DNA of 45,081 nt, taken from a virus. The translations under genes were made by a program, and so were the position numbers. The number at the start of each line of letters is the position of its first letter. Position 1 is the stretch's first letter. This document shows positions 13,735 through 44,081 of the stretch, in pieces. A model generated the notes under the pieces. That model ran no database searches. It saw only the letters and a list, made by a program, of their open reading frames with translations, and was not told the DNA's origin. Where the stretch lies: IMG/VR virus record IMGVR_UViG_3300048914_000065; one strand, 5' to 3'.

Positions 13735-14108
13735 TAGAGAGTGACCGCCAATTCAAACACAGCTTGACGGCTATCGTCGTCGATTCGTAACGATGCGCAT
13801 AACGACAGAATTAGCGGATCGTCAGACACGAAAACTGGTGCGCGTTGCCATCCCATGCGCACAAGAATATCAGGGGAAGCGTTGGCCGCAGCGTCGACCG
13901 TTTCAAGCATTCCGTTTCGGTCGAGCGCTTGAATAAGTTGCCACGATGTGACGTAAATGCTAGGGTGGGCCGGGCCGTCATCCACGATCTGCGGGCCGTT
14001 TCCCTGCGCGAGCCATGCGGCGTACGCCTCGTATTCGGGGGTGCTGTCGTCGAGAGGGATTACCGTATCCCCAAGTTTCAGGACGCCGGCACTTGTCAAC
14101 GTGTACAT
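13734..14108 (-). CDS. Hypothetical protein in the head-module accessory block.
   Basis: 124-aa ORF, tightly packed with its neighbours (ATGA-type overlap at 13734). Confidence 0.4.
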   Translation of the reverse strand: MYTLTSAGVLKLGDTVIPLDDSTPEYEAYAAWLAQGNGPQIVDDGPAHPSIYVTSWQLIQALDRNGMLETVDAAANASPDILVRMGWQRAPVFVSDDPLILSLCASLRIDDDSRQAVFELAVTL

Positions 14109-14110
14109 GA

Positions 14111-20281: not shown

Positions 20282-21871
20282 TTATGTTGCGAAACTAATT
20301 TCAAGCGATGTTGCAATATGATTGTTACCGGCCAATACGCGATACTTGACCATATCAAACGCGTGCGTTTCCGCGCTGTCGTCTACTTCGTCCGGCTTAT
20401 CTTCGTCGCGCGGCAAGTTCGGGATAATGGCAATTGAAGCCCGGCAATTATCCATGAAATACAGGCCGGGCAGTTCGCCCCGGCAAGAATTTTGTAAGCG
20501 GTCGCGCATAAGTTGTAAACCTATGGCGTTCGACCCAGGGGCTTTGTTTGATTTCGTCCAGCGTATGCCGCGATCCGCCATCATCTTTTCAATCGTATCT
20601 ACGGATACGTCGTTGACGTTCGATATTTGGTTGTCGGCGGGGCCGGGCAACGGTTGCTTTTGAATCCATCCGTTCGCCATCATAACGATTTCGCGGTCTT
20701 TTATGCCGTCGGCGATATCGCGGGCCGACATTTTCAAACCTACGTTAGTTCCAATTTCTTTTGTGCCGTACCATTCGGCCAATTGCACAAGCGTTCCAGG
20801 CGGCGGGCAAAATGCGTCACCGTTCTGTAATGTCGCTTCTTCGCCGTTCGCTTCCGCCCACCATCCGACGCTAAATGGATGCGTAGACCCCCAATCAAAC
20901 GAACGATCAAGACGCCAGGAATACGGCACGTAGAAGCGCGGCTTTACGTGGATATGCTTATGCCAAACATCATCGAACGCCCCGCCTGTCACCACGTCCC
21001 AATCGCCGTACAGCCATGCTCGCTTAAGGTTCGGGTCGTCGATACTTTCAAGTTCGGCGACATATTCGGGCGAAAGGTAAATATTTTCACGGTACGAACC
21101 GAAGATCGCAACTTGCGTCTTAATTACGATTTCTTCTTGTTGCGTGCGCGGGTTGAATACCGGGATTTCTTTCTTTACGACTACGCCGCTAGACGCCGGA
21201 TCAATGAAGCGACGTTTCACCCAATTGTGACCGGGGCCATTCGGGTTAGTCGTGCTGAATACTTCAAGCGGAATTTCCGGCAACGGCTTTCCGTCGTGCG
21301 TCAAGTAGGCGCCAGTTTTAGGATTCTTCGGGGTGTGCTTTTCGGGTACGAACGAAGAACGATTCGTCGACATCATTTTATCGTAGAGATACGATGTTGC
21401 CTGTTTCGTTAATTCGTTCCATCCGATGAACGGGTATTCGTGGCCGTGAAATTGGTCGTAATCACCTGGGCGTTTCGCATGCCTAAACAGCAGTTCTTCG
21501 CCGGTCGGCCAAACCCATTTGTATTCACTAGCGCTGCTAAGAAACTTCGCTCCGTCGTTGAACTTCGAAAAGAAACGCTTTGACTGTGCGACCAAATCGC
21601 CCAGGTTCTTAAATTCTTTGTCTAGGATAATGCCGCGCCAGTACGCACCGTACCCGATGCCCACATTGCGGCGGAATCGCATAAGCTGGGTGATAGTTTT
21701 ACCGGGGCCGCGTGCGCCGTGATACAGCGTATGCGAACAGCGCGTGTCCAACGCCAATTCTTGCGAACTGCCGGGGATAGGCTCCCAAACGGTATTAACT
21801 TCGACACTAAGTTTTTTCTTAGACTGTAGAAGTTCGTCACGCGTTTTAATGTGCGACGGGTTTAGCTGCAT
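20282..21871 (-). CDS. terL: Terminase large subunit.
   Basis: 529 aa with a Walker A-like YHGARGPGKT and a C-terminal nuclease-type region. It lies upstream of the portal gene. Confidence 0.9.
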   Translation of the reverse strand: MQLNPSHIKTRDELLQSKKKLSVEVNTVWEPIPGSSQELALDTRCSHTLYHGARGPGKTITQLMRFRRNVGIGYGAYWRGIILDKEFKNLGDLVAQSKRFFSKFNDGAKFLSSASEYKWVWPTGEELLFRHAKRPGDYDQFHGHEYPFIGWNELTKQATSYLYDKMMSTNRSSFVPEKHTPKNPKTGAYLTHDGKPLPEIPLEVFSTTNPNGPGHNWVKRRFIDPASSGVVVKKEIPVFNPRTQQEEIVIKTQVAIFGSYRENIYLSPEYVAELESIDDPNLKRAWLYGDWDVVTGGAFDDVWHKHIHVKPRFYVPYSWRLDRSFDWGSTHPFSVGWWAEANGEEATLQNGDAFCPPPGTLVQLAEWYGTKEIGTNVGLKMSARDIADGIKDREIVMMANGWIQKQPLPGPADNQISNVNDVSVDTIEKMMADRGIRWTKSNKAPGSNAIGLQLMRDRLQNSCRGELPGLYFMDNCRASIAIIPNLPRDEDKPDEVDDSAETHAFDMVKYRVLAGNNHIATSLEISFAT

Positions 21872-26870: not shown

Positions 26871-27389
26871 CTACGACGACAAATATTTTTGAAGTACGTC
26901 AGCAGCTTCGCGCCATGAATAGCAAACGACCCATCCGAACCCCTGGGCCTTTACGAAATCGCGGAATTCTTCTTGCTTGTCGCTTAAACCGCCCTTGCTA
27001 TCGGCGCGCTTCGGTTTCTCTGCGGGCTTCTTCATTTCGATGTACAGGCCCGGCCATACGCCACGGCGCACCGGCAAGAACGTATCGGCTACGCCCGGTT
27101 TGACGCCTTCGGCTTTCATCATGCCGCCCTGAATGCGTGCGCTTTTGGCCGTGTCACCGCGCGAACCGCCGTTCGGAATAGCATGAAACCATTCAAGTTC
27201 GGGTACAGCCTTGGTGACTCCGTAACGTTCGGCGTTTTCAAAGCTGGCGTATGCCGCCATGTCGTTCGCAGCTTCGAACCCGCGATTCTTCGCCATTGCG
27301 CACCAACAGAACAAAGCGGCTTGGTGCGAATGTTCGTTGCCAGCCTTCGCTAGTTGTTCAGGGTTCATTTTTAGCTTCGAATTTTTCAC
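26871..27389 (-). CDS. VRR-NUC domain nuclease.
   Basis: 172 aa (GTG start; alternative ATG at 27368). The pattern HAIPNGG...GVKPGVADTFLP...LYIEMKKP...LSDKQEEF...GFGWVVCYSWREA fits the VRR-NUC core. Confidence 0.7.
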   Translation of the reverse strand: MKNSKLKMNPEQLAKAGNEHSHQAALFCWCAMAKNRGFEAANDMAAYASFENAERYGVTKAVPELEWFHAIPNGGSRGDTAKSARIQGGMMKAEGVKPGVADTFLPVRRGVWPGLYIEMKKPAEKPKRADSKGGLSDKQEEFRDFVKAQGFGWVVCYSWREAADVLQKYLSS

Positions 27390-31275: not shown

Positions 31276-31492
31276 GTTATATAGTCGTTAGATAAAAGTT
31301 AGATGTCTAAGTCATTGATTTTATTAGTGTTATATATGTTATATAAGTTATATAGTATTACTGTAATTGGTATTATATTGGTCTGTATTTATAGGTTCTC
31401 TTTTTCCCTTTTTCTTATATAACCATATAACACATATAACACGTTTAAAATCAATGACTTAGCCGTATAACACCCATATAACGCTATATAAC
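31276..31492. repeat. AT-rich dyad of iterons: candidate replication origin or protein-binding array.
   Basis: GTTATATA occurs at 31276, 31329, 31338 and 31347. The complement, TATAAC, occurs at 31418, 31426, 31435, 31466, 31477 and 31487. A perfect 17-bp inverted repeat (ctaagtcattgatttta 31307-31323 / taaaatcaatgacttag 31446-31462) flanks an AT-rich core. Confidence 0.6.
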
Positions 31493-31522: not shown

Positions 31523-33892
31523 TCATTCGAATCCAAACGATTCAACCTGTGCAATGCCGTAGCATACGCCGTTGAATTCGTACTTCTTCATAACATCGGA
31601 CGGTAGCAGTTGCACAATGTCACCTTGAGCCTTCAAAGTTTCCAACGCGCGCTTGATCGCATTTGTCGAACCGATCCTATCATTGCGGAAAGCAGCGAAG
31701 CTTGACAGAACTTGCACGATGTAACGATGCGGGATAACGCGGTCAGCGTGCATGCGCTTGTTTATCTTGTACTTTTCGATACTGGCGAAGTCTTTAAGCA
31801 CGTAGTTACGAAACGCCTTGATGACTTCGTCGGCCTGTTTCGTTTCCGCCGTTTCTACACCGATGTCGCCACGTTCGAAGCGTTTAAGCAAGTTGCGAAC
31901 ATCAGCAACAATTAAGTTCGTAGCCCATGTCGCAACATCGGCCGAAATAACTGGATCGTACGGGTTGACGCCGACCGCGATCAACGCCGCCAGTTTCAAT
32001 GCCTTAATGTGGGCACGGTTCCAAAGCTGGACGACAACCTCTTGCGTATCGTTGTTTCGCATTTGGTCGTCGCAATGCAAGTTGAATTCTTTGAACATCG
32101 CATCGGCTTCTTCGCTGTAGCGTACGCCGACGGTTTTGTTTGCGTTGTTCAACATTGCAGCGTGCGCGCATAGCGTCGCCATTTTATGAACCAGTTCGTC
32201 GGACGGTTTGACGCGCGTATGATGTTCGTTTAGTTCGGGGCGTTTGCCATAGTATTCAATGATGGTAAAGCGCGGCAACAAACCTTCTGCAATCATGCTT
32301 TCGTCCAACGCTTCGTAGAACTTTTCGGGCGTCGATTCGCCGAGCATTGTAAAGGCCGGGGCTAACACGGCTTCGGTGTTCTTTTCGCGGTCGCTGTAGA
32401 TGCTTGGGCGCAATACGTTACCTTCGCCCGATTTGTTGTACAAGTCGAGCAACATACGACGAAGCCCCAACATATGTGGCGGTGCATTCCAAGCTGACAA
32501 CTGTTTAAGATACAAGCCGAATTCGCCCATTAGCGAAACGAACGATTTCGATTGCTTGCCCATGTACTTTGTAAGCGCTTGGGGCGATGCGATTTCAGCC
32601 GGGCCGATGAAATCTACGGCGGCGGGAACAGTGCGCGTTACGGCACCGATCAACTTGTCTATACCTTTTGCAATCGCTTCCTTGCCGGTGCCAGTGCGGG
32701 CCAGCAGCAGCACGTATTGATTGACGCCGGTTCCTGACACGTTGTACGCGCGTCCACATACGCCCGCCATCAGGCCGATAGCACCAGCAAGGGCGATTTC
32801 GGGCACAGGTCGCGGTGCGGCTTCATAGATGAACCGGGCGATTTCGCCGATTAGCCCAGGCGGAACACTATATATAGGGTTCGACGGCTGCGGGTCGATA
32901 ACTTGGGGCGTGGCGTCGGGCAAGACCATCGCAACGGGCGTGTCATACGCGGTCGCTTCGATGTCGGGCACGCCGTAAATTTGCTGCGCTTGTTGGGCTT
33001 CTTGCATACGTGCGCGTTCGATAGCTTCTTCGACTTGAATTCGCAAATGATCGATGTCGACGGGCGGTAACAGCCTATCGAACGATTTGTTTATCATGTA
33101 ATCGATGTACGGCGTACCGCGAATCGTCGTTTGTTTGTCGCGGGCGCCTAACGGCGAAGCCTTGAAAATGCGGCTGATTTGTTCGCGGCTTTGCGTGTAG
33201 AAAGCGACAACGTTGATAAACGCTAAGTCGGCTTCGGATTGCGACGGGTAATGTTGATGCCATTGCCCGGCTAACAGGGCTTGAAATTTCGAACCATTCG
33301 CCGCATTGCAAGCCCGTTGCAGAATCGCTTGGTCTTCTTCGGTTTGCGGTGCGTTGCCGGTGTACATGATCGTTTCGGCGCGCTTGCCGATTTGATCCCA
33401 AAGCACGTTAAGCAGTTCGTGATATTCGACAATCGGTGACGCCCTGAATACATTACCCGTCATCGTCATAAAACGCGCCGACGAATACACTTCAACGAAA
33501 CTACGTTTACGACCCGACGGAATCGAACCCTTGACGATGATATGTAAGCCCTTTTCGCTTGGGCTTCGTTCTGCGTAGCTTACGAAGTTGTCGAAGATTT
33601 TTTGTTGCTTCGATACTGCGTCGGCGTCGCCGTGTGCGTCGTCCAAGTCGATAAAGCCGAACGGGTCATTGTTCGTCAGCACGAAGCCGATGCCTGCGAA
33701 CCATCCCGACGCCGCAGCATCGATGGCTTGTTCGAATGAACCCCATGTTGAAGGATCGGAAACGCTCGCGTGTCTACCCGTATGCGGGCCATACGGGACT
33801 TTCTTCGGTTTGTCTTTACCCGGTTCTTCTTCGTACCGCCATACGACCCATTGCGCGTATTGGCGCATTTCGAACGGTATGTTTTCGTACAC
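31523..33892 (-). CDS. Bifunctional primase-polymerase (prim-pol) fused to a P-loop helicase-like domain.
   Basis: 789 aa. The N-terminus reads QWVVWRYE...KKVPY...GIGFVL...FGFIDLDD...SPSEKGLHIIV, and there is a central Walker A, LLLARTGTGKEA. Confidence 0.8.
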   Translation of the reverse strand: MYENIPFEMRQYAQWVVWRYEEEPGKDKPKKVPYGPHTGRHASVSDPSTWGSFEQAIDAAASGWFAGIGFVLTNNDPFGFIDLDDAHGDADAVSKQQKIFDNFVSYAERSPSEKGLHIIVKGSIPSGRKRSFVEVYSSARFMTMTGNVFRASPIVEYHELLNVLWDQIGKRAETIMYTGNAPQTEEDQAILQRACNAANGSKFQALLAGQWHQHYPSQSEADLAFINVVAFYTQSREQISRIFKASPLGARDKQTTIRGTPYIDYMINKSFDRLLPPVDIDHLRIQVEEAIERARMQEAQQAQQIYGVPDIEATAYDTPVAMVLPDATPQVIDPQPSNPIYSVPPGLIGEIARFIYEAAPRPVPEIALAGAIGLMAGVCGRAYNVSGTGVNQYVLLLARTGTGKEAIAKGIDKLIGAVTRTVPAAVDFIGPAEIASPQALTKYMGKQSKSFVSLMGEFGLYLKQLSAWNAPPHMLGLRRMLLDLYNKSGEGNVLRPSIYSDREKNTEAVLAPAFTMLGESTPEKFYEALDESMIAEGLLPRFTIIEYYGKRPELNEHHTRVKPSDELVHKMATLCAHAAMLNNANKTVGVRYSEEADAMFKEFNLHCDDQMRNNDTQEVVVQLWNRAHIKALKLAALIAVGVNPYDPVISADVATWATNLIVADVRNLLKRFERGDIGVETAETKQADEVIKAFRNYVLKDFASIEKYKINKRMHADRVIPHRYIVQVLSSFAAFRNDRIGSTNAIKRALETLKAQGDIVQLLPSDVMKKYEFNGVCYGIAQVESFGFE

Positions 33893-34277: not shown

Positions 34278-35231
34278 ATGACCGATATGAAAAACCGCCG
34301 TACCGCATGGGAATGCAAGATCGGCAGTATTAACGGCGTGACTGTTCCGCCGTGCGCCGACGCACCGATGCGCGCAGCAGTTCAAGACGCATTCAGAAAC
34401 GTAACCGGCGAAGAAGCGCAAGTAACGTTTAGCGGCTGGGGTGCAGAGTTCACGCCGCAAGAAATCGCCGTAATCAAGAACGACGGCAGTTGGCCCGCTG
34501 AAGTTCCGACTTTCGACTACGTTGCCGAAGCAAACGTAACTGCGTCGCATGAGTGGCACGGCGAAATGGTCAACTTCTTTTTCTTTAAGGCCGTACTTAC
34601 GAACGCCATCGGTGCTTTACAAGTTCTGGACAAGTACAAAAAGACGCTGTTCTACGGTCGTGATACCGGCTTGCCGATGCCGGATCGTGTCGAAAGCATG
34701 GCAAACATGCTCGCAACTTCGACCGAACACCAGATCGTGCATGCAATCATCGGTTCCGCCACCGAAGCCGGCGAAAAACTGGAACAACTCTACGCATGGG
34801 CGACTGGTAAAATCAAACACTTCGATAAGATCAATCTCGTCGAAGAAACCGGCGATGGTCAATGGTACGACGCATTGCTGGCCGACGCACTCGGCGTAAC
34901 GTTCGACGAAATCCAGCGTATCAACATCGCGAAGTTGCGCGCACGTTACAAAGACAAGTTCGATGCGTTCGACGCGAACAACCGTGAACTGGAGTTCGAA
35001 CGCGGAGTACTGGAAGTCGGCGCCGGTCTTACGTCGATCGCACATGACCAAGCCGCAGCCGCCGTTACCGGCTTGCCCGGCCTGTTCGATCCGCTGCCCG
35101 GCACGATGATGTTCGGCGAGCGCAAAGCCCATGCCGCAACGGTCGCTGCCGGCGTCGAAGCTTTCCGCAAGGAATGTCAACCTGCCGAGCACGTATGGCC
35201 GGGCGCATCGCTTCAATCTAACGAAAAATAA
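34278..35231 (+). CDS. MazG-like nucleoside triphosphate pyrophosphohydrolase domain protein with additional N- and C-terminal regions.
   Basis: 317 aa. Residues around 110-235 read KKTLFYGRD...HAIIGSATEAGEKLEQL...LVEETGDGQWYDALLADALGV..EIQRINIAKLRARYKDKF, the EExGE/D metal-binding pattern of all-alpha NTP-PPases. Confidence 0.6.
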   Translation: MTDMKNRRTAWECKIGSINGVTVPPCADAPMRAAVQDAFRNVTGEEAQVTFSGWGAEFTPQEIAVIKNDGSWPAEVPTFDYVAEANVTASHEWHGEMVNFFFFKAVLTNAIGALQVLDKYKKTLFYGRDTGLPMPDRVESMANMLATSTEHQIVHAIIGSATEAGEKLEQLYAWATGKIKHFDKINLVEETGDGQWYDALLADALGVTFDEIQRINIAKLRARYKDKFDAFDANNRELEFERGVLEVGAGLTSIAHDQAAAAVTGLPGLFDPLPGTMMFGERKAHAATVAAGVEAFRKECQPAEHVWPGASLQSNEK

Positions 35232-35234
35232 TAG

Positions 35235-35286
35235 TTGCATCGTAGCGTTCGACGTAGTATTATTTGAACCATCGTAGAACGCTACG
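35235..35286 (+). promoter_or_regulatory. Sigma70-type promoter TTGCAT-N17-TATTAT, bracketed by a 10-bp perfect inverted repeat.
   Basis: -35 at 35235-35240 and -10 at 35258-35263. The inverted repeat is cgtagcgttc (35241-35250) / gaacgctacg (35277-35286). An AAAGGGG Shine-Dalgarno and ATG 35319 follow. Confidence 0.6.
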
Positions 35287-35318
35287 AAACAACCAACAAC
35301 TTTGAAAGGGGTTTCATT

Positions 35319-35822
35319 ATGGAAAATCTGTCAGTCAATGCAGGCTGGACCGGCGCACCGAAAAAAGCAATGACCGTCGAAGAACGCGACGCGCTGTTGA
35401 ACAAATGGCTTGCCGCGCAACAAGCCTTGGTGAAGGCGAAAGACGAAGAAGCGAAGTTGCGCGCCCAGGTCGTTAGCGACATTATCCAGGCCAAGCCGGG
35501 CGAAAAAGGTACGCGTAACTACGAACTGAACGCCGGGTACAAGCTGAAAGCCGTCTTGAAGCTGAATTACAAGCTGAACAACGACGAAGTAGATAACACG
35601 CTTGACCGTATCGAACGCATCGGCGAAGAAGGCAAGTTCATTGCCGAACGACTGGTAAAGTTCAAGCCCGAACTGTCGGTTACGGAGTACAACACGATTT
35701 CGGAACGCGCCGCCAACGGCGACAGCACGGCGAAGAAGATCATTGCCGAGCTGAACAAGATTCTTACCATTTCCGACGCTACGCCGTCGCTTGAATTGGT
35801 CGAACCGAAAGCCAAGAAGTAA
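35319..35822 (+). CDS. Coiled-coil protein, possibly Sipho_Gp157-like.
   Basis: 167 aa, immediately upstream of the AAA_24-type ATPase as in Sfi21-type replication modules. The similarity judgement rests on position and composition only. Confidence 0.3.
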   Translation: MENLSVNAGWTGAPKKAMTVEERDALLNKWLAAQQALVKAKDEEAKLRAQVVSDIIQAKPGEKGTRNYELNAGYKLKAVLKLNYKLNNDEVDNTLDRIERIGEEGKFIAERLVKFKPELSVTEYNTISERAANGDSTAKKIIAELNKILTISDATPSLELVEPKAKK

Positions 35823-35864
35823 TAGCCCACATTACGCCAGGTTCGCGCCGGGCCATTCCTAAAC

Positions 35865-36545
35865 ATGAACGTAACTAAAGAACTGAAACCGGCGTCATCG
35901 TTCGCGCAGCAATTCGGCGTCAAAGCCTTGCTGTTCGGCGGGCCGGGTATGGGTAAAACTCCGTTGCTGAACACGGCCCCGCGCCCGGTTCTGTTGGCGG
36001 TCGAACCCGGCTTGCTGTCGATGCGGGGTTCGAATATCCCGACGTTCGAAGCGTTCAACAACTACGCACGAATCGAAGGCTTCTTCGAATGGCTGTTCAA
36101 CAGCGCCGAAGCAAAGCAATTCGATACCGTCGGCGTTGACAGTATTTCGCAAATCGCGGAAATTGTCTTGGCCGAACGGCTGGCGAAGAACAAAGACCCG
36201 CGCAAGGCGTACGGCGAAATGTCGCAAAAGTTGATGGAATACGCAAACGGCCTGTACTTCATGCAAAACAAGCATGCGTATTTGATCGCAAAGCAAACCA
36301 GTGCCGACGAAAACGGCGCGATTCGCAAGAAACCGTATTTCCCAGGTCAAGACCTGAACGTAAAAATTCCGCACCTATACGACGAAATCTTGCATTTGGG
36401 TAAAGCGATGATCCCAAGCGTCGGCGAACAAATCGCTATTCGAACAAAAGAAACGTTCGAAATCATGGCCCGCGACCGTTCCGGCAAGTGCGCCGAACTG
36501 GAACCGCCGAACTTGGGCCAACTGTTCCAAAAGATCATGCAGTAA
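35865..36545 (+). CDS. RecA-fold ATPase (AAA_24 / Sak4-like single-strand annealing or recombination protein).
   Basis: 226 aa with Walker A LLFGGPGMGKTP and a Walker B-like VGVDSIS. It is followed by the DUF669-type SSB. Confidence 0.65.
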   Translation: MNVTKELKPASSFAQQFGVKALLFGGPGMGKTPLLNTAPRPVLLAVEPGLLSMRGSNIPTFEAFNNYARIEGFFEWLFNSAEAKQFDTVGVDSISQIAEIVLAERLAKNKDPRKAYGEMSQKLMEYANGLYFMQNKHAYLIAKQTSADENGAIRKKPYFPGQDLNVKIPHLYDEILHLGKAMIPSVGEQIAIRTKETFEIMARDRSGKCAELEPPNLGQLFQKIMQ

Positions 36546-36601
36546 TCGGCGAAACGATACCGCCATTTAAAGTTATCGTAACCTGATAGAGAAAGCATCA
36601 A

Positions 36602-37345
36602 ATGCCAGCACTTCAACAACCGTTCAACTCCTCGCAGTTCGACCCCGCGACCGGCTTTTCGCAACTGCCCGTCGGCGAACATCCCGTTATTATCGTCGCT
36701 TCATCCATCGACGGCAACAAGAACCAGACCGGCGGATATGTCAAACTGAGCGTCAAAGCCATTGACGGCCCGGCAAACGGCCTGTCGATGGATTGGCGTT
36801 TGAATTTGTACAACGCATCGCAGAAAGCCGCTGAAATCGCGCATCGTCAACTGTCGGCGATTTGCCATGCTGTTGGTGTTCCGGCGTTCCAGCAAACTGA
36901 AGAACTGCACGGCAAACCGTTCGTCGTCATCGTCCAGCCGCAAAAGGAAGATGACAAGTACAACGAAATTTCCGGCTGCAAGTATATCGACGGTTCGCAG
37001 ATCAAGCCGGGGCAATACGGCGTCGCGGGCGGCGGTCAAGCCCAGGGCCAGCAGGGCGGCAACTGGGGCGGTCAACCGCAAGGCCAACAGCAACCGCAAG
37101 CCCAGCAGCCGCAAGGTGCATGGGGCGGTGCGCAGGCCCAGGGCCAGCCACAACAGCCGCCCCAGCAACAACCGCAGCAGCCCGCCCAAGGTCAACCGGC
37201 TTGGGGTGGCTCGCCCCAGGGTCAACAGCAGCCGCAGCAGCAAACGGGCGGTCAAGCCTGGGGCGGCGCACCCGCAGCCAACAACGGCGCCGGCCAGTGG
37301 CAACAGGGTCAACAGCAGCCCGGCAACAAACCGGCCTGGGGCTAA
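36602..37345 (+). CDS. ssDNA-binding protein (DUF669-type) with a roughly 110-aa Gln/Gly/Pro-rich tail carrying five WG(G) repeats.
   Basis: 247 aa. It has a globular N-terminal region of about 135 aa, followed by GGGQAQGQQGGNWGGQPQGQQQPQ...AWGGA...AWGGS...AWGGA...KPAWG. The gene is GC-rich. Confidence 0.6.
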   Translation: MPALQQPFNSSQFDPATGFSQLPVGEHPVIIVASSIDGNKNQTGGYVKLSVKAIDGPANGLSMDWRLNLYNASQKAAEIAHRQLSAICHAVGVPAFQQTEELHGKPFVVIVQPQKEDDKYNEISGCKYIDGSQIKPGQYGVAGGGQAQGQQGGNWGGQPQGQQQPQAQQPQGAWGGAQAQGQPQQPPQQQPQQPAQGQPAWGGSPQGQQQPQQQTGGQAWGGAPAANNGAGQWQQGQQQPGNKPAWG

Positions 37346-37370
37346 TTCTTCGTCGTAGTTATCGGCAATT

Positions 37371-37396
37371 AAATAGCGGGCTTCGGCCCGCTATTT
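37371..37396 (+). terminator. Rho-independent terminator or attenuator after the SSB gene.
   Basis: aaatagcgggc-ttcg-gcccgctattt, followed by tt. Confidence 0.7.
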
Positions 37397-37413
37397 TTAA
37401 GAACAAGTAAAAT

Positions 37414-37929
37414 ATGCTTCGCAATCCAAAACGAATTAGTAGCTTACTGCCGAACCCTTCGAACTGCGATAACTGCGGTTCAATGAACATTCGTTACACG
37501 ACCAACGACGTAATTTACGGTCGCATATTTGGCGAGTGGCCCCAATGCTGGTTTTGCGATGATTGCCGGGCGTCGGTCGGTTGTCACCCCCAAACTACGC
37601 ACCCGCTTGGGCGAATGGCCGACCGAGCAACAAAGAAGCTTCGTAACGATGCGCACAAAGTTTTTGACGTGCTTTGGTCGTCTGGTCTTATGACACGCGA
37701 CCGTGCTTACGTTTGGCTTGCCAATGAACTTAACATAGAAGCAGAACAAGCCCATATCGCATTACTTAACAAGGAACAGTTAAAACAGGTAATCGAGGCA
37801 AGCAAAGTATTCTTTGACGAACGCCAAAACATCATCGACCGTCGGAAAGCAAAACGTAATGAAAAACACCGAAACGAAAACAACCGAGAACGCCAACGAA
37901 TCGCCCTGCGAAAGCGCACCGGAAAGTAA
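37414..37929 (+). CDS. Zinc-finger protein, DUF3268-like.
   Basis: 171 aa. The pattern CDNCGS...WFCDDCRASVGCHP..THPLG...LRNDAHKVFDVLW...RDRAYVWLA is followed by a basic tail. Confidence 0.5.
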   Translation: MLRNPKRISSLLPNPSNCDNCGSMNIRYTTNDVIYGRIFGEWPQCWFCDDCRASVGCHPQTTHPLGRMADRATKKLRNDAHKVFDVLWSSGLMTRDRAYVWLANELNIEAEQAHIALLNKEQLKQVIEASKVFFDERQNIIDRRKAKRNEKHRNENNRERQRIALRKRTGK

Positions 37930-38857
37930 AGGCGTTCCGCCTGTAGACCTATCGGCCCCAGGCGTTAAAAAGGCCGTCGCCCAACGTATCAAAGCCGACA
38001 TCGATAAGTATTGCGAAGTGACGTACGACGACGGGCACCGTACGCATTTGGGTGCGTCGAAGATTGGCGAAGAATGCGCCCGCGCGCTTTGGTACGGATT
38101 TCGATGGGTAAGCGCCGAAAAATTCAATGGTCGTATGCAACGCCTGTTTCAACGCGGACACCGTGAAGAACCTTACGTGTTCGAACACTTGCGCGGCGCC
38201 GGATTCCAAATCTTCGAATTCGACGAATCGTTGCCGCTGAAAGACGGAAAGCCGCAGCAATACCGATTCAGTGCTGCATGTGGGCATTTCGGCGGTTCAC
38301 TCGACGCGGTTTGCAAGCTGCCTGCGCATTACAATATTGCCGAACCAATGCTCATTAGCATCAAAACAAAAGCCACCGGAACAGGGTTTAATGAACTGTC
38401 AAGTGACGGTGTAAAGGTTGTAGCGCCTGTGCACTACGCCCAAGAATGCACTTACGGCCGCGCGTTCGGTTTGAAATACGCATTGTATGTGTATAGGAAT
38501 AAGAACGACGACGACCAACATATAGAAGTTGTCGAACTGGATCATAAACACGCCGAACAGCTGGAAATGAAAGCCGAACGTATCATTTTCAGCCGCGAAG
38601 CGCCGCCGCGTATTTCCGAAAACCCGGCGTTTAAAACTTGCAAGTTCTGTTGGTTCGGCAATGAAAAAACCGGCATTTGTTTTAAAAAGCCTGGGCATAC
38701 GCCAATCGACCGAAACTGCCGTAGTTGCAAAAATGCTGTTCCAGGCGAAAACAAAACTTGGAATTGCGATATTCATAGCCGAACTAACGGCCCGTTGCCG
38801 CCCAAAGGATTAGAAAATATCGCTGCGCAGTGTGCTGATTACGATCCCATCGTATGA
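37814..38857 (+). CDS. PD-(D/E)XK nuclease, Cas4/RecB-like, with a candidate Fe-S Cys cluster.
   Basis: 347 aa. It carries LGASKIGEECARALWYGFRW near the N-terminus and CKFCWF...GIC near the C-terminus. The start is uncertain: the ORF overlaps the upstream gene by 116 nt, and ATG 37858 is an alternative. Confidence 0.55.
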   Translation: MTNAKTSSTVGKQNVMKNTETKTTENANESPCESAPESKGVPPVDLSAPGVKKAVAQRIKADIDKYCEVTYDDGHRTHLGASKIGEECARALWYGFRWVSAEKFNGRMQRLFQRGHREEPYVFEHLRGAGFQIFEFDESLPLKDGKPQQYRFSAACGHFGGSLDAVCKLPAHYNIAEPMLISIKTKATGTGFNELSSDGVKVVAPVHYAQECTYGRAFGLKYALYVYRNKNDDDQHIEVVELDHKHAEQLEMKAERIIFSREAPPRISENPAFKTCKFCWFGNEKTGICFKKPGHTPIDRNCRSCKNAVPGENKTWNCDIHSRTNGPLPPKGLENIAAQCADYDPIV

Positions 38858-40569
38858 AACTTCGGTATTATCAAGAGGGGGCGATACAAAGCGTGTTCGA
38901 TTACCATTACGAACACGGCGTAGAAGCCGGTAACACGATTGTCGCTATGCCCACAGGTACGGGCAAGTCGCCGACAATCGGCGGGCTGTTGATCCGGCTG
39001 TATAAAGAATGGCCGTCGTTGCGCGTGTTGAACTTGACGCACGTAAAAGAGTTGATCGCGCAGAACGTCGAAAAGCTGCAAATGATGTGGCCGACGGCCC
39101 CAGTTGGTATCTATTCGGCGGGCCTGGGTCAACGCGACACAATGTTGCCGATTCTATTCGGCGGCGTGGCAAGTATCGTAAAAAGCGAAGCTATTCTGTC
39201 GCAACATTGGGACATAGGAATTATTGACGAATGCCATCTGTTAAGCCCTGAAGAAGATTCAATGTATCAAGTAATTGTTGCGGCCGTCATGGCACGCAAC
39301 CCGCGCTTTAAGCTTATCGGCTTTACCGCAACGCCGTATCGACTGAAACAAGGATTGATTACCGACGGCGGTATTTTCAGCGATATTTGTTGCGACCTCA
39401 CCGGCGTTGATGCGTTCAATCGATTCATCAACGAAGCGTATTTGTCGCCGTTGATCGCTAAGAAAACCGATGTTCAAATCGAAGCGTCGGAATTAAAAAT
39501 TGTCGGCGGCGAGTATGCAGCAAAGCCGCTTGAAGCTGAAATCGACAGAATCATGGTTCCGGGGTTACGCGAAGTATGCGACCTGGGCCAGAACCGTCAT
39601 AAATGGTTGATCTTTACGGCCGGCGTTGCAACTGCTGAACGCTGCGCCGAAATCTTGAATAGCTGGGGCGTTAGCGCGATGGCTGTTCACTCCAAGCTGA
39701 AGGGCTCCGAAAACGATAAGCGAATTGCCGCGCATAAGGCCGGGCAGTTTCGCGCGCTTATCAACGTCGGCAAACTGACAACCGGATACGACGACCCAGG
39801 AATAGACCTGATCGCAGTATTTCGCAAGACGACTTCGCCGGGCCTTTGGGTTCAAATTCTAGGACGTGGAACGCGACCGCTGTATATGCCTGGGTTTGAT
39901 CTTGAAACCGTCGAAGGCCGATTCGAAGCCATGTACGCAGGGCCGAAGCAAAACACATTGGTTCTTGACTTCGCAGCGAACACCGAAGAATTAGGCCCGA
40001 TCAACGACGTTCGCATACCGCGCAAGAAGGGCAAAGAAACCGGCGATGCACCTGTACGCATTTGCACGAAAGAAGCCCTTAAAGTAAATGCGACGCGCGA
40101 AAAATGGGAAATGGAAGATGGATGCGGCGCGTACAATCATGCAAGTGTTCGTAGTTGCTGCAATTGCGGGCGCGAATTTCTGTTTCAAACGCACATTCTA
40201 GCAAGCGCGACCGATGCGGAACTGATCAAAGGTAACGAAGCTGTCGTAGAATACTTCAACGTTGACCGAGTGTTTTATAGCTCGCATGAAACTTCTAAGG
40301 GCCGAAGCCTTAAAGTAACGTACGCGTGCGGTATGCGTAGTTTCCGCGAATACGTAAGCATCGAATACACCGACCCGTCGGCACACTTCGCACGCAAACG
40401 CGGTCGCGACTGGTTCCGCCAACGATTCATTAGCGACGGCGAAGATGTGACGCCACCCGAAACCGTAGACGAAGCATTGCAGTACGTAAGCCGACTCAAA
40501 GAACCGAAACGCTTACGCGTTCGTACCGATCAACAATACCCTGAAATATTAGGCCATGAGTTCTTCTAA
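38854..40569 (+). CDS. Superfamily-2 DEAD/DEAH-box DNA helicase with a C-terminal zinc-ribbon region.
   Basis: 571 aa with Walker A AMPTGTGKS, IIDECH, GFTATP, helicase-C TTGYDDPGIDL...ILGRGTR, and CGAYNHASVRSCCNCG. Confidence 0.85.
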   Translation: MKLRYYQEGAIQSVFDYHYEHGVEAGNTIVAMPTGTGKSPTIGGLLIRLYKEWPSLRVLNLTHVKELIAQNVEKLQMMWPTAPVGIYSAGLGQRDTMLPILFGGVASIVKSEAILSQHWDIGIIDECHLLSPEEDSMYQVIVAAVMARNPRFKLIGFTATPYRLKQGLITDGGIFSDICCDLTGVDAFNRFINEAYLSPLIAKKTDVQIEASELKIVGGEYAAKPLEAEIDRIMVPGLREVCDLGQNRHKWLIFTAGVATAERCAEILNSWGVSAMAVHSKLKGSENDKRIAAHKAGQFRALINVGKLTTGYDDPGIDLIAVFRKTTSPGLWVQILGRGTRPLYMPGFDLETVEGRFEAMYAGPKQNTLVLDFAANTEELGPINDVRIPRKKGKETGDAPVRICTKEALKVNATREKWEMEDGCGAYNHASVRSCCNCGREFLFQTHILASATDAELIKGNEAVVEYFNVDRVFYSSHETSKGRSLKVTYACGMRSFREYVSIEYTDPSAHFARKRGRDWFRQRFISDGEDVTPPETVDEALQYVSRLKEPKRLRVRTDQQYPEILGHEFF

Positions 40570-40792
40570 AGACGACAAATTAGACCGTTATAGACCATTA
40601 GCGGCGTTCGCAATCCTTCGTAGCATTAAAACCGTCGATCCTAACGAACTTGTGAAGTCTTGCATTTCTTGCGACTTTTTCGTAGAATCAAAGGAAGCTT
40701 GCAAAAAATCCGAAATGCAACGACCGCCCGCCCGCGTAATCGCATTCGGCTGCAAAGCGTATGAATGCATTGACGATGACATACCATTCTAG
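40556..40792 (+). CDS. Small Cys-containing protein ending in the bacterial SSB C-terminal tip, DDDIPF.
   Basis: 78 aa. Cys pattern: CISC...C...CKAYEC. The last six codons, gac gat gac ata cca ttc (40772-40789), give DDDIPF followed by a stop. Confidence 0.6.
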   Translation: MSSSKDDKLDRYRPLAAFAILRSIKTVDPNELVKSCISCDFFVESKEACKKSEMQRPPARVIAFGCKAYECIDDDIPF

Positions 40793-40800
40793 GGCGAAAC

Positions 40801-41808
40801 ATGGCAAATAATAGTAAACGTGCGCGTCGTAAAACTGACGAACAATCAAACCTTGTCGCCGCCCTAAAGTTCGTCGCAGCGGCCCAGGGAGACAGCAAAG
40901 CTGAAACCCAGCATACACACGTAATGCTTTCGAAGCAATGGGCGACGGCAACGAACCCGATTTTCGCAATGGGGCATCGTATCGCCGACGACATTGACGC
41001 GTGCCCACATACGGTCCGACTCATTGACGCGCTGTCGAAGTGCGGCCAAACGCTATCGATTACGACCCTTGATAGCGGTAAGCTTTCTATCAAATCCGAC
41101 AAGTTCCGCGCGCTGGTTCCTTGCGTCCCTGGGGCGCTTATGCCGCCCGCCCTGCCCGATACCCCTTGCGCTACCCTGAACGACGCGCTGCGGGCCGGAT
41201 TCGCGGCCGTGGCCGACGTTGCCGGGCCTGTCCAGGGTCGGGAATGGGCAAACGCGGTCTTGCTGCAAGCCGGGTCGGTCATTGCGTGCGATGGAATTTG
41301 CGCCGTTGAATACTGGCACGGCATCGACTTGCCGCCCGGCCTTATCGTACCGAAAGCCGCAGTTGCCGCGATTCTGAAAACCGGCAAGCCGCTTGCGCAC
41401 TTCGGATTTTCCCAAAATACCGCAACGTTCTATTTCGACGACGAATCATGGTTGAAAACTCAACTGTTGACCGTCGAATATCCTAACGTAGGTCGAATTC
41501 TTAACGTAAGTTCGAACCCTTGGCCGTTGCCGCCTGGGTTCTTCGACGCGCTAAAGTCGGTCGCATCGTTTAGCGAAACCGGACAGGTATTCTTTAATCA
41601 AAACGTATTAGCGTCGCACCCTAACGGCGAAGAAGGCGCAATGTACGAAATCGAAGGCATACCGCCGAATAAAGCGTACAATAGCAAATACCTGTTGGCG
41701 TTCGAAGGCTTGGCCGACAGATTCGATTTCAACCCGCACGACCCCATAGGCAATTGCGTTTTCTTCGGAGATAATTTGCGCGGCGTTATTGCAGCAATCA
41801 GGCGTTAA
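40801..41808 (+). CDS. DnaN-like beta sliding clamp.
   Basis: 335 aa. By eye it aligns along its whole length with E. coli DnaN: KLSIKSDKFRALVPCVP (cf. RSGRSRFSLSTLP), IACDGICAV (cf. VATDGHRLAV), LIVPKAAV (cf. VIVPRKGV), TVEYPNVGRIL (cf. GRFPDYRRVLP), AYNSKYLL (cf. GFNVSYVL). Confidence 0.65.
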   Translation: MANNSKRARRKTDEQSNLVAALKFVAAAQGDSKAETQHTHVMLSKQWATATNPIFAMGHRIADDIDACPHTVRLIDALSKCGQTLSITTLDSGKLSIKSDKFRALVPCVPGALMPPALPDTPCATLNDALRAGFAAVADVAGPVQGREWANAVLLQAGSVIACDGICAVEYWHGIDLPPGLIVPKAAVAAILKTGKPLAHFGFSQNTATFYFDDESWLKTQLLTVEYPNVGRILNVSSNPWPLPPGFFDALKSVASFSETGQVFFNQNVLASHPNGEEGAMYEIEGIPPNKAYNSKYLLAFEGLADRFDFNPHDPIGNCVFFGDNLRGVIAAIRR

Positions 41809-41809
41809 G

Positions 41810-41995
41810 ATGAGCAAGCAAAGCAACGCGGCGGCGCAACTGTTCGCACTAATCGACGAACTTAGAACGACCGCCGAAGCTTCCCAGGAAATGAACCGCG
41901 TTTACCGCGATTACATACGGTCGCAAGCCTTTCGTATCGAAGCATTAGAAAAAGAGTTGGAACAACTGCGCGGGACTAAACCGAATGTTCTTTGA
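41810..41995 (+). CDS. Small coiled-coil protein.
   Basis: 61 aa from ATG 41810, one nt after the clamp gene stop. The track start 41789 lies inside the clamp gene. Confidence 0.4.
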   Translation: MSKQSNAAAQLFALIDELRTTAEASQEMNRVYRDYIRSQAFRIEALEKELEQLRGTKPNVL

Positions 41996-44081
41996 AGACG
42001 AAGACACAATAGTTTATGAAGAAGGCGAAGAAGGCCCAGCCCTTCGGGAAAAGCCGAAGCGTAAACTAATCGCGGCGCTTGAACGAGTTTTGCGCCCGTT
42101 ACACTTCTTTACCGACGCCGAACTAATGACGGCGGCGCACCGCGAAACGTTAGTGCTCGATACCGAGTGTTACCCTAACTTTTGGCTTTGTTCGTTTAAG
42201 TCAATCGAAAGCGGGCGCGCGGTATCGGTCGAACTGTCGGCGGATTGCGACTTAGACAGGCCGAAACTTGAATGGATTCTTTGGCATTTCCGAACGGTCG
42301 GATTCAACAGCCGTCGTTATGACTTGCTAATGATTTCGCTTGCGTTGAAGGGTTTGCCCGCCTGGGAACTGCATCAAGTTTCAACGGCAATCGTCAAAGG
42401 TACGGAACGGCTATCTGACATTTACGACAGGTACAACATCGCTACGCCGCCGTTTAATCATATCGACGTTTTCGACGTAGCACCGTTGCCCGACATTTCG
42501 TTGAAAACGTATTCAGGTCGCCTGCACGCAAAGCGCATGCAAGACTTGCCGTACGATCCGACGGAGCCTCTAACGCGCGAGCAGGCGCACCACACGCGAT
42601 ATTACTGCTTCAACGACATCGATAACACCGGGTTGATATTCAACAGTCTATCAAAACAACTTGAACTGCGCGAAGCCCTTGGCCGTGAATACGACCAAGA
42701 CTTACGAAGCAAGTCGGATGCTCAGATCGCCGAAGCCGTGTTCGGTGCGGAAATCGCTAAGATCACCGGGCGCTATCCAAAGAAGCCGAAGATTGAACCG
42801 GGCACGACGTTTCGCTACAAGATGCCGTCATATATCAGGTTCCAAACGCCAATCTTACAAGCGTTGGCCGATGCAATCGCGCAACAGGATTTCGAAATAG
42901 ACAAAGCAGGGTATCTGTTGATGCCGCCGACGGTCGGCCCGTTCGTCGTAATTGGCAAAGGAAACAAGCCAATCAAAGGCCCAGGTAAGGGCAATATCAA
43001 GTTGAACCTTTGGGGCAAGCCGTACAGTGTGGGCATGGGCGGGTTGCATTCGAACGAATCGTCTATTGCCCACATTAGCGACGCCGACACGCTGGTTATT
43101 GACGATGACGTGGAATCATATTACCCGCGCATCATCTTGAATCAACGATTGTTTCCGCCGCACTTGACCGATGCATTCTTGACGGTTTATGAAACATTCG
43201 TTAGCCGTCGTATCGCGGGTAAGAAATCCGGCGATAAAGTCGTAGCCGATTCGCTAAAGATCGTTATTAACGGATCGTTCGGCAAGTTAGGTTCGAAGTA
43301 TTCAATTTTGTATTCGCCCGACTTGCTATTGCAAGTTACGCTAACCGGGCAACTCTCATTGTTAATGCTTATTGAAATGATGGAAACCGCAGGGATTCCA
43401 GTTATTTCGGCGAATACTGACGGCGTTGTTAAGAAATGCCCTAAACATCTTTACGCCGTGCACGAAGCAATTCTGCGCGAATGGGAACGAATTACCGACT
43501 TCAAGACAGAACAAACGCAGTATAGGGCCGTGTATAGTCGTGACGTTAACAATTACATCGCGATTAAAAAGAACTTCGATAAAGATCGTAAGGTATGGCT
43601 TGATGAATTCCCGGTCGGGACCAAACTAGATAAAATGACGAAGGGTAAAGGGGCGTTCGGCAATCCATGGCTCGGCGGCGATTCTGTCGAGATTATGAAG
43701 AAGAACCCCGAATTTACGATTTGCGTTGAAGCTGTAACGCGGTTTTTAAACGATCGCACGCCAATCGAAACGACGATTCGGGAATGCCGCGATATCACGA
43801 AATTCGTTGCAGTTCGCAACGTAAAGGGCGGGGCGGAAAAGAATGATGTTTACTTGGGCAAGGTCGTACGATGGTATTACGCTGAAGGTGAGAAAACACC
43901 AATCTTATCGGTGCTGTATGAAAGTACGGTCCCGAAATCGACAGGCGGAAAGCCTTTAATGGATTTGCCGGATGAATTTCCAGCCGATGTAGACTACGAA
44001 CGATATATCGAAGAAGCTAGCGAAATGTTATTCGATATCGGTTACGCGATTCGACCAAATACGCAAATCAAGTTCTTCTAA
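41985..44081 (+). CDS. DNA polymerase, family-B-like, with an N-terminal 3'-5' exonuclease domain.
   Basis: 698 aa. Exonuclease motifs: VLDTEC (ExoI), GFNSRRYDLLM (ExoII), YYCFNDID (ExoIII). Polymerase motifs: DDDVESYYPRII (DxxSxYP type), KIVINGSFGKLG (KxxxNSxYG type), SANTDGV (DTD position). The C-terminus is QIKFF. Confidence 0.8.
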   Translation: MFFEDEDTIVYEEGEEGPALREKPKRKLIAALERVLRPLHFFTDAELMTAAHRETLVLDTECYPNFWLCSFKSIESGRAVSVELSADCDLDRPKLEWILWHFRTVGFNSRRYDLLMISLALKGLPAWELHQVSTAIVKGTERLSDIYDRYNIATPPFNHIDVFDVAPLPDISLKTYSGRLHAKRMQDLPYDPTEPLTREQAHHTRYYCFNDIDNTGLIFNSLSKQLELREALGREYDQDLRSKSDAQIAEAVFGAEIAKITGRYPKKPKIEPGTTFRYKMPSYIRFQTPILQALADAIAQQDFEIDKAGYLLMPPTVGPFVVIGKGNKPIKGPGKGNIKLNLWGKPYSVGMGGLHSNESSIAHISDADTLVIDDDVESYYPRIILNQRLFPPHLTDAFLTVYETFVSRRIAGKKSGDKVVADSLKIVINGSFGKLGSKYSILYSPDLLLQVTLTGQLSLLMLIEMMETAGIPVISANTDGVVKKCPKHLYAVHEAILREWERITDFKTEQTQYRAVYSRDVNNYIAIKKNFDKDRKVWLDEFPVGTKLDKMTKGKGAFGNPWLGGDSVEIMKKNPEFTICVEAVTRFLNDRTPIETTIRECRDITKFVAVRNVKGGAEKNDVYLGKVVRWYYAEGEKTPILSVLYESTVPKSTGGKPLMDLPDEFPADVDYERYIEEASEMLFDIGYAIRPNTQIKFF

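Follow-up and report, generated by a model that had tools for sequence, protein, structure and literature searches.

The 45,081-nucleotide virus sequence IMGVR_UViG_3300048914_000065 of IMG/VR (referred to here, at its full length, as the window) is an apparently complete siphophage genome. Our results clearly show that this phage encodes a family-B DNA polymerase and a three-domain, beta-type sliding clamp of its own, without a recognisable clamp loader. [quoted passage not shown] Very probably, DDDIPF is here a portable docking peptide of the SSB C-terminus type and not the missing end of the SSB of the phage, and it is attached within this phage family to the helicase, to the Cys4 mini-protein or to the clamp. 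The best explanation that we can offer for the whole, and a tentative one, is a PolB-clamp replicase combined with this portable peptide on helicase or clamp components, by which it would be plugged into a host protein that reads the SSB-Ct. The proteins and motifs concerned are the following.

35865..36545, plus strand: Sak4-like AAA_24 ATPase, 226 aa, directly upstream of the SSB gene (Pfam AAA_24, 1.4e-16; PHROG 124, Sak4-like, 4e-43).
36602..37345, plus strand: DUF669-type SSB, 247 aa (Pfam DUF669 [PF05037], 1.7e-11, residues 17-130; PHROG 6015, "single strand DNA binding protein," 1.2e-60).
36992..37342, plus strand: tail of the SSB, resembling a disordered linker (residues ~131-247; 87% Q/G/P/A, no D or E; ends in GNKPAWG).
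38854..40569, plus strand: SF2 helicase, 571 aa, with ResIII/DEAD and Helicase_C domains (Pfam; PHROG 16).
40556..40792, plus strand: Cys4 mini-protein, 78 aa (CxxC-x9-C-x16-C), ending in CIDDDIPF (PHROG 23504).
40772..40789, plus strand: codons of the DDDIPF tip, identical in product to the E. coli SSB-Ct hexapeptide.
40801..41808, plus strand: beta-type sliding clamp, 335 aa, three domains, without a C-terminal tip (PHROG 947, "DNA polymerase processivity factor," 2.3e-59).
41985..44081, plus strand: DNA polymerase of family B, 698 aa, including a 3'-5' exonuclease domain and ending in NTQIKFF (PHROG 1252, "DNA polymerase," 4e-198).
44064..44078, plus strand: codons of QIKFF, a putative clamp-binding motif on a C-terminal tail that is conserved in homologs.

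A megablast search of the region against 50,697 phage records returned a 45-bp match only, and thus no close DNA relative among GenBank phages; the comparison was therefore moved to the protein level. The comparative set consisted of 84 loci, namely, 80 from IMG/VR (a polymerase homolog with 10 kb on either side) and four GenBank phages, in which open reading frames (ORFs) were called and onto which the window proteins were mapped. Polymerases of Rhodobacter phage RcTitan, E. coli phage Halfdan, Pseudomonas phage 73 and many other phages share 46 to 51% identity with that of the window, and the genes stand in a conserved order.

An original prediction, made from the letters of the window, had pointed out a separate 78-aa protein bearing the DDDIPF tip, and its last six residues are indeed those of the E. 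coli SSB-Ct. The tip is not a chance match, because 113 of the 117 homologs collected by profile search end in PF, and 133 of 136 further representatives end in xPF, with acidic residues at positions -4/-5 and with the proline and phenylalanine invariant. The profile had been built from locus-derived homologs; a word-indexed search with the 78-aa protein alone found only 5 homologs. In an exhaustive hidden Markov model search, the family extended to 1,641 representative clusters (901 at E<=1e-10), and the best-scoring 150 of the 1,641 were small standalone proteins matching to or near the C terminus, with the exception of one spurious repeat protein. Within the alignment, C36, C39, C49, C66, P77 and F78 are invariant, and a segment of the form RPPARVIAxGC is conserved. 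The AlphaFold2 (AF2) model of the protein, a mini-domain predicted with moderate confidence, had a predicted local distance difference test score (pLDDT) of 76, with 85 to 92 in the Cys core; a fold search of this model against the PDB gave no match (best E value, 8.5), and the CxxCxxCC metal-chelating family of Pfam was matched weakly by 13 of 92 family members. The carrier of the peptide in the window is accordingly this small Cys4 protein and not an oligonucleotide-binding (OB)-fold protein with a long disordered linker.

The position of the gene indicates with which protein the mini-protein is associated. A small tip gene is present in 24 of the loci, directly after the helicase gene in all 24, and in 18 of these it overlaps the helicase gene or follows it within 20 nucleotides (nt). 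In the window, the ATG of the tip protein lies inside the last helicase codons, giving a 14-nt overlap with the helicase stop. The distance to the clamp gene ranged from -28 to 7,527 nt over the same 24 loci. As the position of the gene tracks that of the helicase while the clamp can be distant, the Cys4 adaptor is linked to the helicase and not to the SSB. The overlap of the two genes further suggests that translation of the 78-aa protein is probably coupled to that of the helicase and that the two proteins probably act together. A frameshift fusion of helicase and tip protein, which the 14-nt overlap had brought to mind, was discarded; there was no supporting signal, and the standalone start is kept in the 24 loci. 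In Rhizobium phage RHph_X3_2 (locus L087, 3416-3685), the protein encoded after the helicase has EDQGQLPF followed by nine residues, FENSTVPMR, and the tip may be internalised or decaying there.

The same type of tip occurs elsewhere in related replication modules. Tips of the form [D/E]-[I/V]-P-F were carried by the C terminus of the clamp in 36 of the 84 loci, by the small Cys4 protein in the 24 described above, which include the window, Halfdan (DFDIPF) and Pavpe01, and by the C terminus of the SF2 helicase in 6 (L035, L052, L054, L059, L061 and L079). Helicase-borne tips were also found in Pseudomonas phage PaMx25 (DLDDDIPF) and in the E. coli Seuratvirus KS_A8 (DPDYVPF); over these eight helicases, the endings are DDDIPF, DEDIPF or DYVPF. 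Clamp-borne tips stand on a C-terminal extension of 20 to 45 residues, as in phage 73 (NYEDDIPF) and RcTitan (DPDDEIPF). In a wider sample of 120 clamp homologs, 42 end in [I/V]PF, mostly as EDDIPF or DDDIPF, and 37 of these 42 read [E/D/S/N]DDIPF or DDEIPF; nine more of the 120 end in NFPPF, YTPF or VPPF. The median length of tip-bearing clamps in this sample is 380 aa, versus 337 aa for the others. The presence of the tip on the clamp's own C terminus in 42 of 120 homologs backs a functional link between tip and clamp.

Some of the more distant relatives of the module differ in gene content. They encode an RNase H-like protein, in most cases together with an ATP-dependent DNA ligase (L035, 12871-14945; L052, 6243-8088; L092, 1-974; L087, 7364-8026), and some of the relatives with an RNase H-like protein are helicase-tipped (L035, L052 and KS_A8). 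Some distant relatives belong to Queuovirinae or Kleczkowskavirus, and 7-deazaguanine genes are inserted between their helicase and clamp genes. The window has no RNase H, ATP-dependent DNA ligase or 7-deazaguanine genes.

The original prediction had regarded the SSB and the 78-aa protein as two parts of a split SSB. Its description of the SSB as a DUF669-type protein with a long Gln/Gly/Pro tail that ends in KPAWG and has no acidic tip agrees with the composition of the tail and with the Pfam and PHROG matches. DUF669 proteins usually have acidic C-terminal tails (PMC4889955; also PMC5928155), and the sense that something was missing from the SSB was thus a fair one: the acidic tail typical of the family is absent from the window SSB, which has no D or E in its tail and ends in PAWG. 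This tail, however, has features of its own. It contains six (A/N/Q)-W-G(G) repeats spaced by 13 to 27 aa, with tryptophans at residues 155, 174, 201, 220, 233 and 246, and 41 of 46 related DUF669 SSBs have a tryptophan among their last eight residues (of the PPWGQR or PAWGQPR type), together with three to six internal W-G repeats. These ends share a conserved, non-acidic terminal motif, P-x-W-G(-Q-R). Since the tail has this different conserved ending, the SSB is not a truncated protein awaiting a tip. None of the 46 distinct relatives carries an IPF tip on the SSB, and an xPF-like end (RDAPF) is found only in L057, where the DUF669 SSB (13603-14172) ends in PWAAGKAGKGSRDAPF, the xPF-like end standing after the usual PW motif; there was no clamp gene within the stretch of this locus that was examined.

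Taken literally, a split SSB would mean that the DUF669 SSB, itself tip-less, is bound by the 78-aa protein and receives its acidic tip in trans, so that DDDIPF is displayed on SSB-coated single-stranded DNA. The lack, in the window SSB, of the acidic tail that is general in its family (PMC4889955, PMC5928155) is in line with this idea, and the L057 SSB ending in SRDAPF, in a locus where no clamp was seen, indicates that the tag can sit on an SSB. We nevertheless consider this arrangement very unlikely. The tip gene lies 3.2 kb from the SSB gene in the window and adjoins the helicase gene in 24 of 24 loci, loci without the small protein have the tip fused to the clamp or helicase and only 1 of 46 has it on the SSB, and the SSB already possesses its own conserved terminal motif. 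The notion of a split SSB is thus not supported, as in relatives the tip belongs to the clamp, to the helicase or to a Cys4 protein encoded after the helicase. Whichever protein reads the tip, an annotation of the window SSB as "missing its tip" needs correcting.

The clamp is of the beta type by predicted structure. An AF2 model built with a 66-sequence alignment had a pLDDT of 90.6 and showed three tandem clamp-fold domains in one chain. Foldseek aligned this model over its full length with the E. coli beta clamp (template modeling [TM] score, 0.80; E value, 6e-20; ~15% identity), and the beta clamps of E. coli, Pseudomonas (P. aeruginosa), Rickettsia and Helicobacter were matched with TM scores of 0.75 to 0.81 and E values of ~1e-19 over 360 to 366 columns. 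At the level of sequence the relationship is remote: no Pfam family, including the DNA_pol3_beta models, was matched at E<=0.01, a single-sequence search of the PDB gave nothing meaningful, and a profile of the clamp family reached Helicobacter pylori DnaN at 1.5e-5. The full-length, DnaN-like clamp that had been proposed is thus confirmed in its fold, as a remote homolog of the bacterial beta clamp and not as a canonical member. In an hhalign comparison of low probability, made with a single-sequence template, the family-conserved phage segments VATNGxVL and P228..R232-I233 (P-x-x-x-R-I-L) fell on VATDGHRL (residues 170-177) and P242..R246-V247 of E. coli beta. Residues 170-177 and 242-247 of E. 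coli beta contribute to its hydrophobic peptide-binding pocket between domains 2 and 3. Preceding domain 1, the phage clamp has a basic N-terminal extension, SKRARRK (aa 5-11; 40813-40833), that is absent from E. coli beta and that could serve in DNA binding or in pairing with acidic tails.

When 57 candidate ORFs, among them all those of at least 250 aa, were scanned against PHROG and/or Pfam, no clamp-loader family (AAA+ gamma/delta, gp44/62 or RFC) was found, which agrees with the earlier failure to recognise a loader gene by inspection. The NTPases that these scans did find were the Sak4-like AAA_24 ATPase, the SF2 helicase and a primase-DUF3987 protein. A putative terminase large subunit (20282-21871), scanned against Pfam only, had no match. 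In the stretches of related loci that were examined, a clamp loader was not detected either. For viruses that encode no loader, Kazlauskas and Venclovas (2011) named the host loader as the alternative, an option that by their own statement lay beyond computational reach (PMC3201878).

The same authors showed that loader-independent viral clamp homologs have a raised isoelectric point (pI), whereas ring-type clamps are acidic (PMC3201878). The core of the window clamp has a pI of 5.6 (family median, 5.7), within the range of ring-type clamps, and by this rule a ring that needs to be opened is favoured. The pI was also considered as a means of telling tip-bearing from tip-less phages and was dropped, since the group medians, all between 5.1 and 5.9, do not differ with the presence of a tip.

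It is also conceivable, if quite unlikely, that the clamp needs no loader at all. It would then load itself on ends or nicks, or act as an open or monomeric DNA-binding factor aided by its basic N-terminal tail, and the tip would have another role, such as that of bringing in RNase HI, PriA or exonucleases of the host or that of a decoy by which the partners of the host SSB are titrated. The same type of clamp is used by relatives in which no tip was detected, the basic N-terminal extension that E. coli beta does not have is conserved, and the phage encodes neither RNase H nor ligase, so that host versions could be recruited, while some relatives encode both. A core pI of 5 to 6 in every group is, however, the signature of a ring that depends on a loader and not that of a basic, UL42-type factor (PMC3201878), and a decoy role leaves the fusion of the tag to clamp and helicase unexplained.

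The polymerase was classified by its motifs. Those of the exonuclease (Exo I, D59/E61; Exo II, N108/D113; Exo III, Y207/D211) and those of the polymerase (motif A, D373..S378-x-Y380-P381; motif B, K425..N429-G-S-F-G-K434; motif C, N477-T-D479-G) are invariant in an alignment of five phages. In the PDB, its palm region matched Pol II, the closest by sequence, and Pol alpha (by profile, to 4e-7); no Pfam family, DNA_pol_B included, was matched at E<=0.01. The protein is a member of a divergent phage clade of family B, corresponding to PHROG 1252.

The original prediction had likened the QIKFF end of this PolB-like protein to a clamp-binding pentapeptide, and this likeness extends to the family. 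Of 79 unique polymerase homologs, 43 have a C-terminal phenylalanine, located on a tail of 8 to 14 residues past the last conserved helix. Among these 43, F or L occupies position -2 in 39, with L/I at -3/-4 and Q/A at -5 (QLQFF, QLSFF, QIKFF, QITFF, ASLFF and NLKLF are examples), and the consensus of the tail is [Q/T]-x-[L/I]-x-[F/L]-F. In about 12 more of the 79, the motif stands 1 to 3 residues before the end or is followed by an acidic extension (Halfdan, PDLF-EDLEGSGEGW); the rest have no tail. The clamp-binding consensus in bacteria is QL[S/D]LF. E. coli Pol II, itself of family B, reportedly binds the beta clamp through a C-terminal QLGLF, a finding credited to Dalrymple et al. in 2001. 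Because the tail is conserved and is like the bacterial QLxLF motif, it argues strongly that the polymerase binds the phage clamp, and we regard binding through the extreme C-terminal QIKFF as quite probable on the strength of these sequence comparisons. The tail is absent in the helicase-tipped relatives and in small-protein loci in which the clamp is far from the helicase.

These observations raise the question of which protein reads the tip. The reading that we favour would place the Cys4 mini-protein of the window at the fork together with the SF2 helicase, where the tip would connect the phage fork to a protein that normally reads the C terminus of the host SSB. Through chi, the tip would attract the host clamp loader to the fork or the clamp of the phage; the phage clamp would be loaded by it and, once loaded, would tether the phage polymerase. 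Both chi and DnaG bind the SSB-Ct (PMC3632105, PMC6783573). A host reader is favoured by the identity of the tip with the bacterial SSB-Ct, including its invariant proline and phenylalanine, and by the near-exact DDDIPF or EDDIPF form of the clamp- and helicase-borne tips. Among host readers, chi is the most economical target, because the loader alone among replicase components is both required by an acidic, ring-type clamp and undetected in this genome and in the examined parts of related loci, and a tag for loader recruitment would be equally sensible on a clamp, on a helicase and on an SSB. The identification of chi and the host clamp loader as the partner of the tip is at once the weakest step of this scheme and the best single candidate; taken by itself it is possible but doubtful. 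We rank the phage PolB and the Sak4-like ATPase below it, at the same level as each other, and leave the remainder to other host partners or to a decoy function. As a general statement, that in Septimatrevirus, Lokivirus, Titanvirus, Queuovirinae and their uncultured relatives the host loader loads the phage clamp after recruitment through chi by an SSB-Ct peptide displayed on the clamp, on the helicase or on a Cys4 adaptor, the proposal is rather doubtful.

Several observations weigh against loading by way of the tip. In the small proteins, the tip lies only 9 to 11 residues past the last cysteine, and with this short spacing it may be less free than the tail of a real SSB. Six relatives with the full SSB-to-polymerase module (L014, L019, L025, L029, L042 and L067) have no tip in the stretch examined; as their clamps are acidic and of the ring type, a tip is not obligatory for the use of such a clamp. 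Helicase-tipped relatives without the polymerase tail still keep a clamp. The basic N-terminal extension, [KR]xRAR[RK], is conserved in all clamps of the family, which weakens a strict link between tip and loading. With an identity of only ~15% to E. coli beta, the phage clamp might not be opened by a host loader. The tip also does not covary consistently with the SSB of the host. In RcTitan, the DDEIPF of the clamp matches the SSB of the host genus (Rhodobacter sphaeroides, LDDEIPF), but the alphaproteobacterial phages Rhizobium N17 (LGDIPF) and Sphingomonas Kharn (EDKIPF) and the E. coli Seuratvirus helicase (DYVPF) do not follow this pattern. Covariation was thus set aside as a discriminator, being supportive in the RcTitan clade only and not strong evidence.

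By analogy with phage T7, the tip could instead be read by the phage PolB, its acidic, Phe-ended tail docking on a basic patch of the polymerase while the contact between QIKFF and the clamp provides a second tether, so that no host loader would be needed. All three carriers are sensible as polymerase tethers, a tip on the helicase being parallel to the tail of the T7 gp4 helicase and one on the SSB to that of gp2.5, and the C terminus of a clamp lies on its polymerase-binding face. The distribution of the polymerase tail, which tip-less relatives keep and helicase-tipped ones do not have, would be explained by two alternative tethers, and the tips of the small proteins do not follow host SSB sequences. 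On the other hand, a contact internal to the phage has no obvious reason to keep the bacterial I-P-F consensus with its invariant proline, which 37 of 42 clamp tips retain in the form given above, and the T7 tails are DGDF/DTDF, not IPF. On balance, we consider a PolB reader unlikely.

No more probable, in our estimate, is a reading by the Sak4-like AAA_24 ATPase, again drawn by analogy, in which the docking tail by which DUF669 SSBs normally recruit Sak4 would have been transferred, within this lineage, to the helicase or the clamp and would couple annealing or recombination-dependent replication to the fork. This proposal has the sole experimental precedent for a tail in a DUF669 module: the HK620 SSB ends in NDYPPF, and without these last six residues Sak4 neither binds SSB-coated single-stranded DNA nor is stimulated (PMC5928155). 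The acidic tail usual in DUF669 proteins (PMC4889955) is the one that the window SSB does not have, the nine clamp homologs ending in NFPPF, YTPF or VPPF are near NDYPPF, a Sak4-like gene adjoins the SSB gene in the window and in most of the loci that cover this part (43 loci, by phmmer), and the helicase-tip loci L035 and L052 have divergent Sak4-like copies. Recruitment of an annealase to a sliding clamp, however, has no clear logic, and Sak4 could instead have its handle in the conserved P-x-W-G end of the SSB. Relatives without a tip have Sak4-like genes just as well, so that co-occurrence of these genes with the tip does not discriminate; presence or absence of Sak4 was for this reason rejected as a test, the gene being found with or without a tip wherever this part of the module was examined.

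The minus strand from ~1.3 to 33.9 kb carries the genes for structure and lysis and small early genes; among these are tail, tape measure, capsid, portal-like, endolysin and spanin genes. Positions 34278-44081 form a compact plus-strand module in which neighbouring genes overlap, or stand apart, by no more than ~70 nt, in the order MazG-like protein, DUF7173, Sak4-like AAA_24 ATPase, DUF669 SSB, DUF3268 zinc-finger protein, Cas4-type exonuclease, SF2 helicase, 78-aa protein, clamp, an orphan ORF of 61 to 68 aa and the polymerase. This is the replication/recombination module of a ~45-kb siphophage related to Septimatrevirus, Lokivirus and Titanvirus. The genes had been taken to form one operon; as a transcription unit this is putative. 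Tight packing on one strand holds throughout 34278-44081, and a scan of the module for promoters and terminators gave counts under the shuffle expectation. Two further features are as follows.

41789..41995 (probable ATG at 41810), plus strand: orphan ORF of 61 to 68 aa between clamp and polymerase, overlapping both.
31523..33892, minus strand: archaeo-eukaryotic primase (AEP) primase-polymerase fused to a DUF3987 helicase-like domain, 789 aa (PHROG 3022, 4.5e-253; Pfam NrS1-1_pol-like_HBD and DUF3987).

For the orphan ORF, neither a homolog among the 84 related loci nor a PHROG match was found; it is lineage-specific and, judged by eye only, resembles a coiled coil. The AEP primase-DUF3987 protein, encoded divergently from the module, is likely the replicative primase-helicase. 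Past the 3' end of its gene lies a 217-bp AT-rich intergenic stretch (31276-31492) holding nine of the ten GTTATATR copies in the window (2.0 expected by chance), four on the plus and five on the minus strand in two facing arrays, together with a 59-nt imperfect inverted repeat (31286-31344 and 31425-31483). This stretch is a candidate replication origin or regulator-binding array. A 172-aa protein encoded at 26871-27389 on the minus strand gave weak matches to VRR-NUC (Pfam, 0.0015) and to the Holliday-junction-resolvase family PHROG 5702 (3.2e-8); from these matches it is likely a resolvase for recombination-dependent replication.

Parts of this picture are already in the literature, namely, the clamp homology (2011), DUF669 as an SSB (2016, 2018) and the general idea of a host loader. 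Searches of one paper library on phage clamps with SSB-type tails, on the use of host loaders and on Septimatrevirus replication returned nothing on the tip, and no report of the Cys4 family (PHROG 23504), of its linkage to the helicase, of the P-x-W-G end of the SSB or of the clamp-binding-like polymerase tail. The roaming tip thus appears to be undescribed. Ever since the catalogue of 2011, the manner in which phage-encoded clamps of the beta type function with no loader has been a question to answer, and it is now testable by way of a mutable tip, found on the clamp itself in about 40% of homologs, and a conserved polymerase tail; tractable systems for this include the E. coli K-12 phages Halfdan and Shy and the Seuratvirus group. 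Its interest is above average, because the loader question becomes experimentally approachable in E. coli phages. If the tip is directed to chi, this would be a new hijack of the host replisome and the first natural SSB-Ct known to us that works outside an SSB; more generally, the SSB-Ct would be a short, mobile linear motif, shifted by phages from one replisome protein to another. If it is directed to the phage polymerase or to Sak4, coupling mediated by tails in the manner of T7 would be extended to a replisome that uses a clamp. PHROG 23504 gains a functional hypothesis whichever reader holds.

Among known systems, phage T4 likewise combines a phage clamp, gp45, with a family-B polymerase that has a C-terminal clamp-binding tail; T4, however, has its own gp44/62 loader and a two-domain, trimeric clamp, whereas the clamp of the window phage is a three-domain beta type and no loader was found. 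With E. coli Pol II, the polymerase shares its family and last five residues that fit Q-[L/I]-x-[L/F]-F; here the partner would be a clamp of the phage itself, with only ~15% identity to host beta, and the tail is not universal. In 2011, Kazlauskas and Venclovas (PMC3201878) catalogued PolIII-beta homologs in Pseudomonas phage 73 and in Burkholderia phage BcepGomr. These homologs belong to the same clamp family and lie beside the same PolB, with 41 to 59% identity among aligned relatives and up to 93% for the closest database match; that paper gives the homology only, with no mention of the IPF tip of the phage 73 clamp, the small tip protein or the polymerase tail. Phage HK620 (PMC5928155) also has a Sak4-like ATPase gene beside its DUF669 SSB gene, but its SSB ends in NDYPPF, whereas the window SSB has a long Q/G/P tail ending in PAWG and the xPF tag is on other proteins. 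The E. coli SSB-Ct, which is read by chi and about 17 other partners (PriA, RecQ and ExoI are among the SSB-interacting proteins), has the identical hexapeptide at the extreme C terminus, and throughout the phage family the proline and phenylalanine are likewise invariant and preceded by acidic residues; the phage peptide is, however, carried not by an OB-fold SSB but by a 78-aa Cys4 protein here and by a clamp or SF2 helicase in relatives. In T7, the gp4 helicase and the gp2.5 SSB have acidic C-terminal tails that end in phenylalanine and bind the gp5 polymerase. The two systems thus resemble each other in having an acidic tail with a terminal aromatic residue on several fork proteins, the helicase among them, for interchangeable docking; they differ in that T7 uses DGDF/DTDF tails together with thioredoxin and no clamp, whereas the tails described here are of the bacterial I-P-F type and are found on the sliding clamp as well.

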